From assembly GCA_038045385.1 (NCBI GenBank), contig JBBSYE010000006.1, positions 2,668 through 66,667 on the forward strand: a DNA stretch of 64,000 bases, in the 5' to 3' direction. The notes under the pieces are model-generated. The model saw only the letters and a list, made by a program, of their open reading frames with translations. It was not told where the DNA came from and did no database searches. Position numbers and translations under genes: made by a program. This document shows positions 2,985 to 32,102 of this stretch, piece by piece. Positions within the stretch are counted from its first letter, which is position 1. Every line of letters starts with the position of its first letter. Source of the DNA: Nanobdellota archaeon (lineage in GTDB: Archaea > Nanobdellota > Nanobdellia > Pacearchaeales > GW2011-AR1).

Positions 2985-4949
2985 ATGAACCACGATGAAC
3001 ACAAACACCACGCAAAAGCCCAAGAGTCAAGCCTAGAAGAAATAGAATTAAAATCTTGGAGTAGAAAAATGGTCGGCTCTTGGATGTTCGGAATACCTCT
3101 GTTGTTAATGATGGCCTATACAAGAATTTTAGGCAGAACAATTTTTACAGAAAATATAGACATAGCTTTATTTCTAATTTTAGGATTTCCAATAGTTTTC
3201 ATCTTTGGTTTTGAAACAATAAAAGGCGGGCTTCGTGGCTTTTATACTTTTTATTTCACCATGGACTCTTTAATAGCATTAGGAACAGTCGTAGCTTATC
3301 TTAGCGGATTTTTTAGTTATTTCGGCATCGTAGCAGATTATTCTGGAGTTGCAGGCGCAATCATGGCAATATTCATTACAGGAAAATATATAGAAACAAA
3401 AGCAAAAGGCAGAGCAACACAAGAGATTCGCAAACTTCTAGAATTAAGTGCAAAAAAAGCACGCATTATGAAAGGCAAGCAAGAAATTGAAGTAGACATA
3501 AGCGAAGTAAAAGTTGGAGACATAATAATAGTAAAGCCAGGAGAAAAAATTCCCACCGATGGAATGATAGTGAAAGGTGCAAGTTCAGTAGACGAAAGTA
3601 TGGTAACAGGCGAAAGCTTACCAGTGGACAAAAAGCCAAAAGATTTGGTAATCGGAGCAACAATAAACCAAGATGGAATATTATATATCAAAGCAACTAA
3701 AGTCGGAAGCGATACATTTTTAGCCCATATAATTCAACTTGTCGAAGAAACTCAAAGTACAAAAGTGCCTATACAAAGACTTGCAGATAAAATAACGAGC
3801 ATATTCGTCCCCGTAATTCTCGTACTCTCTCTTATAGTATTTGCAAATTGGTGGATATTTACAGGAGAATTAAGCAGAGCATTAGGCGTTGCGATTTCAA
3901 TTCTAGTTATCGCTTGTCCATGTTCATTAGGACTCGCAGTTCCAATATCTCTAATGGTAGGTAGCGGTATGGGTGCTAAAAAAGGAATACTTATTCGTAA
4001 AGGCGAAGCAATTCAAACAATGAAGCAGGTAAAAATAATAGTCTTTGACAAAACAGGCACAATAACAAAAGGCAAACCTGAAGTTCGCGAGATTTATAGC
4101 AAAGTAAAACAAGAATATCTCCTTGAAGTTTCTGCAAGTTTGGAAAAATTATCAGAGCACCCACTATCAAAAGCAATAGTCCTCAAGGCTGGTTTGAAAA
4201 AATATAAACCAGTCACTAACTTTAAAATTTTAAGAGGTCGCGGTGTAGAAGGTAAAATTAACTCAAAGAATTTCATAATAGGCAATTCAAGGTTGATGGA
4301 AGAAAAGAAAATAAATATTAAGTCACTTATAGAAAAAATAGAAGAATTTGAAAGTAAAGGATATACAACAATAATCGTCTCTGAAGATGGAAAAGCCATC
4401 GGAATAATGGGCATAGCAGATTCTACCAAAGAAGATTCTGTTCAAGCCATATCCGAATTAAATCTTCAAGGATATAGAACTGTAATGTTAACAGGGGATA
4501 ATGAACGCACGGCGAAAGCCATAGCTAAACAAGTAGGCATTAGAGAAGTAATTGCGAATGTTCTTCCAGAGGAAAAAGCACAGAAAATAGTAGAGCTACA
4601 AAAATCCGGCTTTGTATCTTTTGTAGGCGATGGTATCAATGACGCTCCCGCCTTAAAACAATCTAACGTCGGAATTGCAATGGGCACAGGCACAGATATA
4701 GCAATAGAAGCAGGAGACATTGTTCTTGTAAAAGGTAGCCTTATTGGAGTTGTCCAAGCCATAAACCTCTCAAAAGCAACATTTAAGAAGATAAAACAAA
4801 ATCTATTCTGGGCATTTGCCTACAATGTTGTTGCGATACCTCTCGCAGTCGCTGGCGTTTTACACCCAATTATCGCCGAACTCGCGATGGCTTTATCTTC
4901 AATAACTGTTGTAACAAACGCAAACCTATTAAGGAAAAATAAAATATGA
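2985..4949 (+). CDS. copA: P1B-1 type Cu(I)-transporting ATPase
   Basis: TGES, CPC, DKTGT, HP, TGDN and [10 protein letters not shown] motifs; YN and MALSS in the late TMs; His-rich N-terminus. Confidence 0.93.
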
Positions 4950-5626
4950 GCTTCAAAGAATTCATCAGAGAACTAGACGGAGAACGCATTGAGGGGGAAC
5001 TAGTAAGAACATTTCTTTATTCAATAATTCTTTCCGCAATCACATTCGGCATAATCTATTTTCTCTTTTTAAGTCAATATATAGATTTGCAAAAATCAGG
5101 ACTTTATGTAATCTTAACATTACTTAGCATCGCCTTTATAGTTCCTGTTGCAAAACAAGTTCGCACATACAACGCCTTAACTTGTATGGGTGGAATGATG
5201 GTCGGCATGACTATCGGAATGATTTCCGGCTTTCTCATCGGATTCTATATAGGTGCAACAAACGGGATGTTTATCGGCTCTTTGGCAGGGATGATTACAG
5301 GAATATTCCTCGGAACATGGCTCGGCTCCTGTTGTGGAATTATGGGGTTTCTAGAAGGAATTATGGCTGGATTTATGGGCGGTTTAATGGGCGCAATGTC
5401 AGCAGTAATGATGATAAATGATTATCTTGAAGTGGCTTCAATAATAGTATTCATAGTCAGCGCGATAATACTCATAGGATTAAAGTATATGATATATATT
5501 GAAACAAAACCTCTAAAAAGAGATAGAAAACTTTCAAGTTGGCTAACAATTCTTCTCTCAATAGCTTTCACTATATTTATCTCATTAGTTATTGCCTTCG
5601 CGCCAAAAAGCCTTTTAGTGCAGTAG
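4946..5626 (+). CDS. Met/Gly-rich polytopic membrane protein of the copper operon
   Basis: [13 protein letters not shown] and [15 protein letters not shown] segments; ATGA overlap with copA. Confidence 0.75.
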
Positions 5627-5657: not shown

Positions 5658-5728
5658 GGGCCCATGGTTTAATGGTAAAATACATGGCTGGCAGTCATGG
5701 GATCGGAGTTCGATTCTCCGTGGGTCCA
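5658..5728 (+). tRNA. tRNA-Ala(GGC)
   Basis: Acceptor GGGCCCA/TGGGTCC with G3:U70; anticodon arm CATGG-CTGGCAG-TCATG; T-loop TTCGATT; no encoded CCA. Confidence 0.93.
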
Positions 5729-5730
5729 CT
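5709..5730 (+). repeat. 22-bp direct repeat, copy 1 (tRNA-Ala 3' end)
   Basis: TTCGATTCTCCGTGGGTCCACT, identical to 6381-6402. Confidence 0.95.
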
Positions 5731-5911
5731 ATTGTCCACACATAAAAAGATGATTATTGCCAAAATCAGTACCAACTTCCTTCTTAATGTTTAAGCCTAT
5801 GAATATATTTTATGGTTTAAACCGAAATGCATCCACACAACCCCATAATTATGTTATTACTTTATAGTTAAAGATAGAAAGATTTAAATAGCTATAATTA
5901 ATAAAAAAGAT

Positions 5912-6274
5912 ATGACCCGACTAGCTAATTTAGAGGCATATTCTACATTTCAAAGAGGGCTCGATATAATCAGGAGGCAGTTCCCTACATTAAACTTTAT
6001 ACCTGATGAATCTACTAATCTTATTGATGCAACAAGCGGGATGCATAACGTACTCTATCGAGGTATAAATGAGGCCAAAAGAGTATACGAAATGATCGTG
6101 GCTTACTCATTGTGTGAAGGAAAACCACTTATTCACATTCGTGTTTATGAAAATGACCATAGGGATATAGTTCGCAGAATATTAGAAGAAGACTTGAGGA
6201 TAAAACCCTCTATTGGAGACCAGAGGCCCGCCTTTGATAAGATCGACATTGATGCACCTCTCAATGTATCATAA
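5912..6274 (+). CDS. hypothetical protein (islet cargo)
   Basis: 120-aa ORF with its own GAAAGATTTAAATA promoter-like sequence. Confidence 0.7.
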   Translation: MTRLANLEAYSTFQRGLDIIRRQFPTLNFIPDESTNLIDATSGMHNVLYRGINEAKRVYEMIVAYSLCEGKPLIHIRVYENDHRDIVRRILEEDLRIKPSIGDQRPAFDKIDIDAPLNVS

Positions 6275-6380
6275 CTAAATCGTTACAGAAATTAACCTCT
6301 TTGATTTGTTCGTTTAATCAAGTGCTAGAGTTTTGATTTCCTTTATTTTATAGAACGAAAAAGGTAGCGGAACTTTACTC

Positions 6381-6402
6381 TTCGATTCTCCGTGGGTCCA
6401 CT
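6381..6402 (+). repeat. 22-bp direct repeat, copy 2 (tRNA-Ala 3'-end fragment)
   Basis: Identical to 5709-5730; flanking bases differ on both sides. Confidence 0.95.
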
Positions 6403-6434
6403 CAATTTATAAAATCACATTCCTATAAAAAGCC

Positions 6435-7367
6435 ATGAAAATATTCAGCACACTCCTATTTATCTTACTATTATCTACCATAGTTTACGGCGCATATTTC
6501 CTTTATGGAGAGCTAGATAGAAAGAACTACAATATAACCCCAATAACTAACACTCAAGATGAAATTCCTTCAATTCCTCAACAAAATAGCCAAAGCAAGC
6601 AATTCTATAATAACATGAGATTTACAGACAAACAAATATCATACTATTTTGACGAACGTTGCTCTGAAGAAAAGATAAATCAACTTGAAAAGGCATTTAG
6701 TATATTCGAAGATGAAACAATTCTAGAATTATCTCAAAATTCAGACGGAGAAATTTATATTGCTTGCTCTGAAATAGCTCCAGATCCTCAAACAGAAGGG
6801 CATTTCGTCGCAGGAGAAGGGGGCCCAACAAAAGTCATAAACGGAACAAAATATGCCATAATTCTTGAGGGCAAAATCTCTCTATTTGAAGACGAAGAAT
6901 GTAGCAGACCGAATATTGCAGTTCATGAGCTATTTCATGTATTTGGCTTTGACCATAATAATGACCGCAAAAGCATCCTCTACCCTACTCTAGATTGTAG
7001 CCAAATTTACAACCAATATCTCTTTGACAGAATAAATGAGCTTTACACCACGCCAAGTCTACCAGATTTAAGACCTCAAAATATTGAATTAGAAAAAACT
7101 GGCCGTTATCTAAAATTTTCAATCGAAGTCTCAAACGACGGCCTTAAAGAAGCAAATCAAGTGGATTTAGATTTGTTTATTGATAACGAGAAGACGAACA
7201 CCTTTGAGCTTGGGGATATAGACATAGGAGTAAAGAAAATCTTTAGCGTAGAAAACTTACGTGTTCCAAGAGGCGCAAAAAAAGTCGAATTTAAAGTTGA
7301 CTCCTCAAGTAAGATACCCGAAATATCTGATCTAAATAATAACGCAGAATTTAATATAGAAGACTAA
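6435..7367 (+). CDS. membrane-anchored metzincin (matrixin-like) metalloprotease with a C-terminal CARDB domain
   Basis: HELFHVFGFDH zinc motif; C-terminal LPDL...V.N.G...VDS...I.E....NN pattern. Confidence 0.85.
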   Translation: MKIFSTLLFILLLSTIVYGAYFLYGELDRKNYNITPITNTQDEIPSIPQQNSQSKQFYNNMRFTDKQISYYFDERCSEEKINQLEKAFSIFEDETILELSQNSDGEIYIACSEIAPDPQTEGHFVAGEGGPTKVINGTKYAIILEGKISLFEDEECSRPNIAVHELFHVFGFDHNNDRKSILYPTLDCSQIYNQYLFDRINELYTTPSLPDLRPQNIELEKTGRYLKFSIEVSNDGLKEANQVDLDLFIDNEKTNTFELGDIDIGVKKIFSVENLRVPRGAKKVEFKVDSSSKIPEISDLNNNAEFNIED

Positions 7368-10644: not shown

Positions 10645-10801
10645 TCCCCTCTCCCAGAGTCGAACTGGGGATCTTCCGGGTACTGTCGTACAACGTGTTC
10701 TAACGAACACGTCCTGCGGGCGTTTCATCCTTCTCCCCAAGGGAGTGTCAACGCTCGACATTGTCTACAGCCAGACGCTTTAACCACTAAGCTAAGAGGG
10801 G
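10645..10801 (-). tRNA. tRNA-Tyr(GTA) with an 84-nt intron at 37/38 (10681..10764)
   Basis: Acceptor CCCCTCT/AGAGGGG (C1:G72); anticodon stem TCTGG/CCGGA; BHB-like central helix CTGT/ACAG with TA|C bulge; mature length 73 nt. Confidence 0.92.
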
Positions 10802-10882
10802 CTATAACTCATTATCAAAAGCGATTTTTAAAGCTTCACATCGTGCATAGATTTAAAATAGCTAAAAAGAGTAACTTGCTTC

Positions 10883-31141: not shown

Positions 31142-31205
31142 AAGAAAACCTATAAGAAAGGTATTTAACTTTTACTACGTGTTTTACAGTTATAGAAGGG
31201 TATTA

Positions 31206-31260
31206 CGCCCGGACCAAGAATCGAACTTGGATATCCTTGCGGAAATCGGTTTACTTGTTT
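31206..31260 (-). other. orphan tRNA-Ser 3' exon (46 nt, 31206..31251) preceded by an intron/BHB remnant
   Basis: AAACAAG-TA|A-ACCGA-TTTCCGCAAGGATA-TCCAAG-TTCGATT-CTTGG-TCCGGGC-G; no matching 5' exon seen in the window. Confidence 0.85.
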
Positions 31261-31869
31261 TTATCGCATTTTACTCTCAACAAGTGAATATGCTTTCCGA
31301 AATCTTTTATATTGACGTTTTTTAATTGCTGGCGGTAGAGCTTCCGGAAGGTAAACGTGCATCATAAAATCCCGAATAGTCTCTAGTTTTCCTCGATTAG
31401 GTAGATTATGGATTATAGGAACTTCTTCGTTAGTCACGTCAATAATATTAATAATACCCAAGGGGTAAATTGCAGGAATTAAATCTGGTAGTCTGTAAGC
31501 TGCAGGATTGCAGCAAGAAATAATTAGTCCAGAAGAAGTTAAACGTTGTTGCATTAAGAAAGGAACGATATCGCTACCCTCATCCCCTGGGCTATCAAAA
31601 TAAAGCCATTTGTCCGCACTAGAATGGCCGTGACATTTTATAAATCTCAGCGGTTTTATAATGCTAGAAGACTCTAGTAAATTGGCGACTTGAGCTGGAA
31701 GCCTTTCAGCGTATTTATTTACAGCGTGACTATAATCCAACCTCATTTGAAGTGCGACATCTTCTTCCGTTTCAAGAGTTGTATCAATCGCTTTTTTTTC
31801 TAACAAACGCTGTTCCGAAATTAGAAATTCTCCAAACCAGGGGCCAACACGACAAGGAAAATTATGCAT
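31261..31869 (-). CDS. hypothetical protein, possible caspase/CHAT-like cysteine peptidase
   Basis: RFIKCHGH and GLIISCCNP; stop codon abuts the orphan tRNA half. Confidence 0.6.
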   Translation of the reverse strand: MHNFPCRVGPWFGEFLISEQRLLEKKAIDTTLETEEDVALQMRLDYSHAVNKYAERLPAQVANLLESSSIIKPLRFIKCHGHSSADKWLYFDSPGDEGSDIVPFLMQQRLTSSGLIISCCNPAAYRLPDLIPAIYPLGIINIIDVTNEEVPIIHNLPNRGKLETIRDFMMHVYLPEALPPAIKKRQYKRFRKAYSLVESKMR

Positions 31870-31919
31870 CTTTAGATTATCTAAATAAGACTTTTATATC
31901 TTTGGACAATTATTGAAGA

Positions 31920-32078
31920 CGCCCGGACTCGGAATCGAACCGAGATATCCTCACGGAAATCGCATGTCTTGTTTTCTTTCCCACATTTAAGGAAGAAAGA
32001 CCCTTTCTTCTTTCCCAGGGGTTTCTTCCTAAGAAAGGCCTTTTCGAGTGCGACGCAATTCCATTATGCGATCCGGGC
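31920..32078 (-). tRNA. tRNA-Ser(CGA) with a 77-nt intron at 37/38 (31966..32042)
   Basis: GCCCGGA/TCCGGGC acceptor, G73; TCGCA/TGCGA anticodon stem; long variable arm; mature length 82 nt. Confidence 0.9.
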
Positions 32079-32102
32079 TAAAGCAATTCAGAAAATGAGC
32101 TT

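Follow-up and report, generated by a model that had tools for sequence, protein, structure and literature searches.

Integration at tRNA genes is well documented in archaea, where partial tRNA copies represent the attR end of integrated elements (PMC9897764). In PYG1 of Pyrococcus yayanosii, inserted at tRNA-Gln, an intact tRNA gene is accompanied by a direct orphan copy of its 3′ end, and the site is empty in relatives (PMC9897764). Here, we analysed a locus of the same general kind, a tRNA-Ala islet, in a stretch of 64,000 nucleotides (the window) of the Nanobdellota archaeon assembly GCA_038045385.1 (contig JBBSYE010000006.1, positions 2,668 to 66,667 of the forward strand). The host is a small-genome groundwater archaeon of the Nanoarchaeota/DPANN, with a genome of 783 kb in 8 contigs, 35% guanine plus cytosine (GC) and an estimated completeness of 89%; it is referred to as G000, and other species of the same genus as G001 to G008. 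The islet shares with PYG1 the intact tRNA, the orphan 3′ copy and the empty site in a relative. However, PYG1 extends over 21.4 kb between 44-bp repeats, and the elements of other Thermococcaceae comprise 9–23 kb of viral or plasmid DNA (PMC9897764), whereas the islet measures 0.67 kb and carries one gene and no integrase.

Other described systems resemble the islet in part. The cryptic integrated elements of Thaumarchaeota also occupy tRNA genes and carry cargo of unknown function, but they range from 2.6 to 140 kb and were detected via their integrases (PMC6563490), the islet being four times smaller than the smallest of them. In Firmicutes, the cis-mobilizable elements (CIMEs) related to ICEs (integrative and conjugative elements) and to IMEs (integrative and mobilizable elements) have, like the islet, attL and attR sites and no recombination or transfer genes, and are regarded as products of decay, open to mobilisation by a related autonomous element (PMC5704250, PMC6323972). 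However, CIMEs are bacterial, span kilobases to tens of kilobases and are defined against a cognate ICE using the same site. For the tRNA-Ala site no cognate autonomous element was found in a limited sampling, the integrases of the genus being located at tRNA-Gly and tRNA-Glu. The islet has the structure by which a CIME is defined, without a known cognate element, and its mobilisation is a prediction. In the tycheposon islands of Prochlorococcus, likewise a streamlined genome, repeated integration at one tRNA pushes older inserts outwards, leaving remnants and extra partial tRNAs, so that most of the DNA lies outside intact elements (bioRxiv 10.1101/2020.12.28.424599); the tRNA-Val locus of G000, described below, looks similar. 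Tycheposons, however, have modules for replication and for an integrase, and their islands contain fragmented integrases, whereas the G000 islet holds neither such genes nor their fragments. Family 2 casposons, one of which resides in the same genome, also insert at tRNA 3′ ends with a direct repeat, but they produce a fixed 14-bp duplication, have long terminal inverted repeats and carry Cas1 and a polymerase, none of which is present in the islet. Integron cassettes may be compared by analogy, being units of ~0.5–1 kb with a single gene and no recombinase, the newest of which lies nearest the capture site. They differ in that the islet has no attC-like site (fold z −0.2), attI or IntI, that its capture site is a tRNA and that its cargo has a promoter-like box of its own. 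Altogether, the islet is much smaller than the published examples found in the literature and is unusual just in this small size and in its missing integrase; otherwise, it belongs to a familiar kind of insertion scar.

The islet is a real insertion with clean borders, of a known kind and of modest interest. It probably arose when 672 bp were added at the tRNA-Ala(GGC) 3′ end through conservative site-specific recombination by a tyrosine-type integrase that is no longer, or never was, in the genome. An earlier note made from the letters alone had described an exact 22-bp repeat reaching from the T-loop to two bases past the discriminator and enclosing only 650 bp with one open reading frame (ORF) of 120 amino acids, and both descriptions were confirmed. 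The 22-mer TTCGATTCTCCGTGGGTCCACT is found in two exact copies on the + strand, at 5709–5730 and 6381–6402; no third copy occurs in the window at up to 3 mismatches, and no match was obtained in 100 dinucleotide-preserving shuffles. The first copy forms the 3′ part of tRNA-Ala(GGC), called by ARAGORN at 5658–5729 and by Rfam at 5658–5728 (60.8 bits). Read along the sequence, the repeat comprises the T-loop (7 nt), the 3′ strand of the T-stem (5 nt), the 3′ strand of the acceptor stem (7 nt), the A73 discriminator and 2 trailer bases, and similarity ends abruptly on both sides of it. The tRNA-Ala at the left border appears to be functional and regenerated, judging by its full-model Rfam match together with G3:U70 and A73. 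Between the copies the only ORF called is that at 5912–6274 (+), and the GC content of the insert (34%) is close to that of the window (35%). The features of the locus, with the evidence for each, are as follows.

4946..5626, + strand: upstream flank, outside the insert; gene for a 226-amino-acid multi-pass membrane protein (ORF call; no Pfam match; syntenic with contig C47 of G007)
5658..5728, + strand: tRNA-Ala(GGC), intact, with a G3:U70 pair and A73, CCA not encoded (ARAGORN; Rfam RF00005, 60.8 bits, model positions 1–71; sequence)
5709..5730, + strand: repeat copy 1 (attL core), from the T-loop to the discriminator plus 2 nt (exact repeat)
5731..6380, no strand: inserted DNA between the repeats, 650 bp (absent in G007)
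5883..5890, + strand: TATA-like box TTTAAATA, 22–29 nt 5′ of the ATG (sequence only)
5912..6274, + strand: cargo gene, 120 amino acids, of an uncharacterised four-member family (ORF call; phmmer)
6381..6402, + strand: repeat copy 2 (attR), displaced tRNA 3′ end with no tRNA body 5′ of it (exact repeat; no ARAGORN or Rfam tRNA here)
6403..6434, + strand: trailer originally behind the tRNA, with the downstream gene's promoter region, ATTTATAAAA (aligned to the 38 bp after the G007 tRNA-Ala, ATAATTATAAATA...ATG)
6435..7367, + strand: downstream flank, outside the insert; gene for a 310-amino-acid secreted metalloprotease-like protein with a CARDB domain (Pfam; syntenic with contig C47 of G007)

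That the islet is a true insertion was demonstrated by the comparison with relatives, 60 of which were searched at the DNA level for its flanks. The empty-site allele that the earlier note had proposed to look for was found in G007, where a single contig (C47) carries the upstream membrane-protein gene, tRNA-Ala(GGC), 38 bp and the metalloprotease-like gene, the tRNA being joined directly to the downstream gene. The two loci share 66% nucleotide identity from the upstream gene through the tRNA and 65% over the downstream gene, and their coordinates are offset by ~675 bp. What follows repeat 2, and not what follows repeat 1, aligns with the 38-bp G007 trailer; therefore, the chromosomal tRNA 3′ end was displaced to 6381–6402 and 672 bp were added. 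G007 is the only relative with conserved synteny and is a distant one (~66% nucleotide identity). In the downstream flank, the Pfam matches of the metalloprotease-like protein are CARDB (2.7e-8), Astacin (4.9e-8) and Peptidase_M10 (1.7e-6).

The repeat is not an assembly artefact, a doubt raised in the earlier note that was dispelled by four independent metagenome assemblies. Contigs retrieved by exact-protein look-up from Logan SRR32696708 and ERR3858121 and from ENA ERZ1292633 and ERZ1292628 (the latter two named 'Hain_H41') carry the occupied structure colinear with the window. One of them, contig L036 from ERZ1292633, spans the upstream gene, the tRNA, repeat 1, the ORF, repeat 2 and the downstream gene, and those from SRR32696708, ERR3858121 and ERZ1292628 cover the locus partially. 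All four are identical to the window except for two single-nucleotide polymorphisms, and they are therefore separate samplings. The available contigs all show the islet as fixed in the population.

The borders of the insert carry no trace of another mode of entry. No terminal inverted repeats were found in 5731..6380 (left end against reversed right end scores 14, with a shuffle mean of 17.4), no stable hairpins occur at its ends (fold z −0.2 and −0.9), and folding of the 106 nt from the stop codon to repeat 2 is no more stable than that of shuffles (z −0.2). Additionally, no integrase remnant was detected within the insert by tblastn with four integrases from the genus (no match at E≤10). The genome-wide search for recombinases suggested in the earlier note agrees with its observation that the islet lacks an integrase: the sole phage-integrase-family match in the whole of G000 is XerA (equivalog model, 259.9 bits against a cut-off of 220), whose gene adjoins ribosomal protein genes and which scores 218.6 bits on the integron integrase model TIGR02249, below its 265-bit cut-off. 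Serine recombinases (PF00239) and SSV-type integrases (PF16795) both remained below cut-off in G000, and tblastn of the four dedicated integrases of the genus against G000 returned the XerA locus only and nothing in the islets. Thus, among the features of a tRNA-targeting integrative element, the repeat, the tRNA and the empty site are all present, while an integrase on board is not, the insert holding one 120-amino-acid ORF with no recombinase signature.

The tRNA-Ala islet is not alone in its genome. The earlier note had proposed a search for further tRNA-end repeats, and this search revealed a 31-bp repeat at tRNA-Val and a 3′-half copy at tRNA-Ser; in total, exactly three orphan tRNA 3′ fragments are present in G000, and exact direct repeats of at least 16 bp involving a tRNA end are two only, at tRNA-Ala and tRNA-Val. 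The search rests on 26 host tRNAs called by ARAGORN and 8 intron-containing ones recovered by a T-arm scan. The two further islets are located as follows.

Contig C4:3995-4872 (L040:1596-2473): tRNA-Val(GAC) islet, 31-bp exact repeat GGCCGCGGTCCGATTCCGCGCAGGGCCATTT, 803-bp spacing
Window 31204-32079, − strand: tRNA-Ser(CGA) islet; tRNA with an intron at 31920-32079, gene at 31264-31869, orphan copy at 31204-31262

In the tRNA-Val islet, a gene with a PIN domain (PF01850, E 1.6e-11) is overlapped by one for an 80-amino-acid ribbon-helix-helix-like protein, and the two constitute a VapBC-type toxin–antitoxin pair. The islet is followed by a 327-amino-acid Ldh_2-family gene with no repeat 3′ of it. 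In the tRNA-Ser islet, the orphan is a 57-nt copy of the tRNA 3′ half (45/57 identical) with compensatory T-stem changes, and the single gene encodes 202 amino acids and has no Pfam family. The three inserts measure 650–772 bp. No common sequence outside the tRNA-derived repeat and no common end module or backbone was found among them; their ends are unstructured, and no inverted repeats were detected (scores 14–15, with shuffle means of ~17). The resident casposon, used as positive control of the inverted-repeat test, scored 186. This casposon lies at the 3′ end of tRNA-Ser(GCT), at C1:94442-113819 (19.35 kb). Its terminal inverted repeats are 93 bp long and perfect, and the 14-bp sequence TTAAAGAATACGCC found at C1:94442 and C1:113806 is its target duplication; its Cas1 (PF01867, E 1.1e-60; C1:108106-108939) is the only one of the genome.

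In other species of the genus, tRNA 3′ ends are occupied as well. The tRNA-Val locus is a variable hotspot across the genus: in G001, G002, G003, G005 and G006 a conserved promoter, with a small gene whose product starts MKKYLLLIEDE, lies within ~10–40 bp of the tRNA end, whereas 1.9 kb intervene in G000, consisting of the toxin–antitoxin islet and the Ldh_2-family gene. In G007 (L052:620-3721, C3), 2.9 kb with a 693-amino-acid secreted Thr-rich protein and others follow the tRNA-Val, and in G008 (L051:780-3300, C17) 2.3 kb with a 232-amino-acid membrane protein and a 422-amino-acid HExxH-type protein; the cargo of the two is unrelated, and no tRNA-end repeats are present in either. The exact duplication of the tRNA-Val end is found in G000 only among 401 genomes of the family. 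Additionally, a 273-amino-acid tyrosine integrase gene lies 49 bp after tRNA-Gly(GCC) in G003 (L140:9271-10212, C5), at the contig end, and one of 403 amino acids lies 59 bp after tRNA-Glu(TTC) in G004 (L141:9302-10646, C1), with no matching tRNA-end repeat within ~10 kb of the latter. With integrase genes placed right behind tRNAs in these two species, it follows that the lineage hosts tRNA-targeting integrative elements. A scan of the 3 kb downstream of all 73 Rfam-called tRNAs in two relatives, G004 and G006, in which ~0.03 chance matches of at least 14 nt are expected, returned three further islets.

G004, C1:465164-466260 (L145): tRNA-Thr(CGT) islet, 15-nt repeat, 1025 bp, two genes, no integrase
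G006, C9:111418-113600 (L213): tRNA-Gly islet, 14-nt repeat, 2093 bp, four genes including a possible small toxin–antitoxin-like pair, no integrase
G006, C5:73770-75171 (L206): tRNA-Ser-like islet, diverged 3′-half copy 1323 bp away, one 300-amino-acid gene, no integrase

In the reading that we consider probable, a circular DNA whose attachment site was identical to the terminal 20 nt of the tRNA and 2 bases of its trailer would have recombined with the chromosomal tRNA gene, the crossover falling somewhere inside 5709–5730. The incoming copy would have restored an intact tRNA at attL, and the displaced chromosomal 3′ end would have been left behind the insert as the 22-bp orphan at attR. The enzyme would be a tyrosine-type integrase, gone from the genome or never there: the combination of a repeat running from the T-arm to the tRNA end, a regenerated tRNA and an empty site matches tyrosine-type integrase recombination at a tRNA attachment site. 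What was directly observed is the repeat, the intact tRNA, the empty site in G007, XerA as the only recombinase and the recurrence of such islets in the genus; the G007 site and the recombinase search together uphold the insertion at a tRNA 3′ end without an integrase on board, as put forward in the earlier note. Its conclusion that a perfect repeat means a recent event fared less well, since the identity of 22 bp only bounds the divergence to below ~0.14 substitutions per site (95%), and to below 0.06 when the tRNA-Ala and tRNA-Val repeats are pooled. The insertion is younger than the split between G000 and G007, but not necessarily very recent.

Several observations weigh against this reading. 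No integrase gene or fragment is present in or near the islet, and XerA is the only tyrosine recombinase of the genome; this absence is not proof, as the genome is 89% complete and extrachromosomal elements may have remained unbinned. No element using the same tRNA-Ala site was found, and no attP-like copy in viral, metagenome or genome collections; in public collections the 20-mer of the attachment site occurs only in whole tRNA-Ala genes of many unrelated small-genome organisms, with no duplicates. In G008 the tRNA is 96% identical but stands in another neighbourhood, with no repeat within 3.3 kb on a 5-kb contig. The assembled contigs contain no excision product, circle (attP) junction or empty-site (attB) allele. 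The Logan contigs of three runs do break inside the tRNA-Ala, the upstream ones ending at 5709 and the downstream ones starting at 5684, but these are not the positions expected for attB or attP, and the breaks are probably due to tRNA sequence common to other community members. Additionally, three different tRNAs are targeted in G000, which would take three integrase specificities or one relaxed one. The islet is at present unable to move by itself, and the 672-bp circle that recombination across its repeats would release is a prediction.

The likeliest history of the insertion would be the trimming of a larger, integrase-bearing element to one retained gene in a compact, deletion-prone genome, a view that we favour tentatively, at slightly less than an even chance overall. 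The repeat-less cargo next to tRNA-Val in G007 and G008, and distally in G000, suggests a decay series; integrase-bearing elements exist in the genus, a toxin–antitoxin module survives at tRNA-Val, and three different tRNA targets occur in one genome, all of which favours remnants, as does the lack of a second copy of the cassette in the protein collections searched. The chief competitor invokes the same chemistry with another history and mobility: a small non-replicating circle, made of one gene and a mimic of the tRNA end, would have been inserted by a recombinase encoded elsewhere, whether viral, plasmid-borne or supplied by another integrated element or by the symbiont's host cell, and could be excised and moved again. 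On the whole this is doubtful, yet all seven repeat-bounded islets of the three genomes (within the 3 kb downstream of tRNAs that were scanned) are integrase-less and measure 0.67–2.1 kb, with 1–4 intact genes filling almost their whole length and no integrase pseudogene fragments, and such compact islets fit cargo-only cassettes at least as well as erosion, which also counts against the remnant history. Five gene-less inserts of 47–80 nt in G006, described below, show further that, in the genus, units of very small size are being inserted behind tRNAs. However, no circle junction or attP-bearing contig accompanies the missing second copy in the collections searched, the three G000 islets share neither a sequence beyond the tRNA-derived repeat nor an end module, three tRNAs would demand three cognate recombinases or a very relaxed one, and the relatives of the cargo gene stand in ordinary chromosomal contexts rather than beside tRNA ends. 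If insertion is accepted, the balance between the two histories tips modestly toward the remnant; the weight left after both goes to other mechanisms.

Mechanisms that dispense with a site-specific integrase fare considerably worse. Campbell-type homologous recombination of a circular fragment through the 22 bp would yield the identical outcome, a direct repeat of the shared segment, and donor DNA would be abundant, the 20-nt tRNA-Ala end being common to many unrelated small-genome groundwater organisms; it is nevertheless very unlikely, since 22–31 bp are far below the lengths shown to work in archaea: in Thermococcus kodakarensis homologous recombination takes at least 500 bp, and the pTN3 integrase uses ~100 bp in its relaxed reaction (PMC5495485). 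Moreover, the repeats always run from the T-arm to 0–3 nt past the tRNA, which is not expected of random homology, and islets bounded by non-tRNA repeats are absent among the exact repeats of the genome. A start in the T-arm and an end just past the tRNA are reportedly, after Williams in 2002, the classic geometry of integrase attachment sites. A tRNA-end-targeting enzyme is present in the cell, in the Cas1 casposon at tRNA-Ser(GCT) on contig C1, and its casposase might have inserted the islet as a miniature casposon with the repeat as target-site duplication. Such an origin is still more improbable, because the resident duplication is 14 bp long and accompanied by 93-bp inverted repeats, whereas the islets have 22, 31 and ~57 nt inside the tRNA, no inverted repeats (14–15 against ~17 in shuffles) and no similarity to the casposon ends; the missing inverted repeats and the variable duplication length rule out the casposase as the agent. 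It is hardly conceivable, finally, that no insertion occurred at all and that copy 2 is the last piece of a decayed tandem tRNA duplicate or an error of assembly. Tandem tRNAs do occur in the genus, as with tRNA-Ala(CGC) beside tRNA-Ala(GGC) in G008, but decay would not leave 22 perfect bases beside sequence of zero similarity, the G007 site is uninterrupted, and the spacer consists of an intact gene with its own promoter-like box; an artefact is contradicted by four agreeing assemblies and by the one contig that spans everything.

The cargo gene itself could not be assigned to any family of Pfam, NCBIfam or PHROG. An exhaustive phmmer search of 1.8 billion representative proteins identified three relatives of 104–112 amino acids (35–48% identical, E 3.6e-11 to 6.6e-7), and the motifs YRG and H-[IV]-RVY common to the four members indicate that the 120-amino-acid ORF belongs to a real gene family. 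The three remote relatives are encoded on other archaeal contigs, among ordinary chromosomal genes, and show no consistent tRNA linkage. A word-index search returned the protein itself only, and no homologue was found in 400 genomes of the same order or in viral contigs. With the four-sequence alignment, AlphaFold2 confidently predicted an alpha-beta4-alpha-beta2 arrangement (predicted local distance difference test 83, predicted template modelling score 0.79). Foldseek comparisons with PDB and BFVD gave E 0.037 or worse and template modelling scores of 0.5 or less, and a profile search against PDB sequences gave E 0.5 or worse; the resemblances to LAGLIDADG, YbjN and SUI1 folds are weak and not credible, and the sequence has no LAGLIDADG motif. 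As a working guess, the product may be a small cytoplasmic accessory protein. The promoter that the earlier note attributed to the gene corresponds to the TATA-like TTTAAATA at 5883–5890, which, judged by sequence, could serve as an archaeal promoter of an mRNA with a short leader or none. The 40–45 nt around the box resemble intergenic DNA of numerous related genomes. The stretch 5845–5916 (AAAGATTTAAATA...), 5′ of the cargo gene, has matches of 25–48 nt (80–96%) to intergenic DNA in many genomes of the family, which suggests a strong promoter consensus held in common and not homology.

Recognisable mobile elements are very few in the tiny genomes of DPANN archaea, although gene content differs from one species to the next. 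In this context, the tRNA-Ala locus represents a clean case, at base-pair resolution and with occupied site, empty site and intact tRNA, of single genes entering a DPANN genome at tRNA ends. Counting this islet, three are present in its genome and at least seven in three species of the genus, and tRNA 3′ flanks are therefore places where accessory genes accumulate in the lineage, toxin–antitoxin genes included. As remnants, the islets would illustrate the speed at which integrated elements shrink to one kept gene, and as cassettes mobilised in trans they would indicate a capture system not yet described. A wider proposal, which we regard as rather unlikely, is that the tRNA 3′ ends of the genus serve as general capture sites for recombinase-less units, from the 50–80-nt modules of G006 to the 0.7–2.1-kb cassettes of G000, G004 and G006, which would be inserted, and possibly exchanged, by a host enzyme or by a recombinase from outside the units. 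Such a system would be an archaeal counterpart of integron- or CIME-type capture, supplying toxin–antitoxin pairs and other genes to genomes almost devoid of mobile machinery. The wider pattern of tRNA ends as accretion sites of very small units in DPANN merits a systematic survey. For annotation, orphan tRNA 3′ fragments are to be expected in such genomes and should not be taken for tRNA genes or split tRNAs.

The five gene-less inserts of G006 lie directly behind tRNAs, measure 47–80 nt and are each closed by an exact tRNA-end repeat of 14–35 nt. They are located at the following positions.

G006, C7:90279 (L181)
G006, C5:36405 (L193)
G006, C7:75361 (L194)
G006, C2:63779 (L207)
G006, C2:98185 (L209)

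No such mini-inserts are present in G000 or G004, no antisense tRNA copy occurs within 400 nt of any G000 tRNA, and the G000 islets, with their unstructured ends, show no similarity to them. Strong hairpins are formed by four of the five (z −2.7 to −5.7). At least three have, right after the tRNA, an antisense copy of that tRNA's own T-loop; in two of these it is succeeded by a sense copy, with which it forms the first hairpin. A scaffold, GAAGTTACCGCGGA...CGCGAGTA, is common to two of the mini-inserts. The eight intron-containing tRNA genes of G000 were missed by ARAGORN and by Rfam at gathering threshold; each has a full T-arm with a matching acceptor 5′ strand 63–143 nt upstream. Seven are located on other contigs of the genome, and the one in the window lies on the minus strand at 10645–10805, with its T-arm at 10653–10669.

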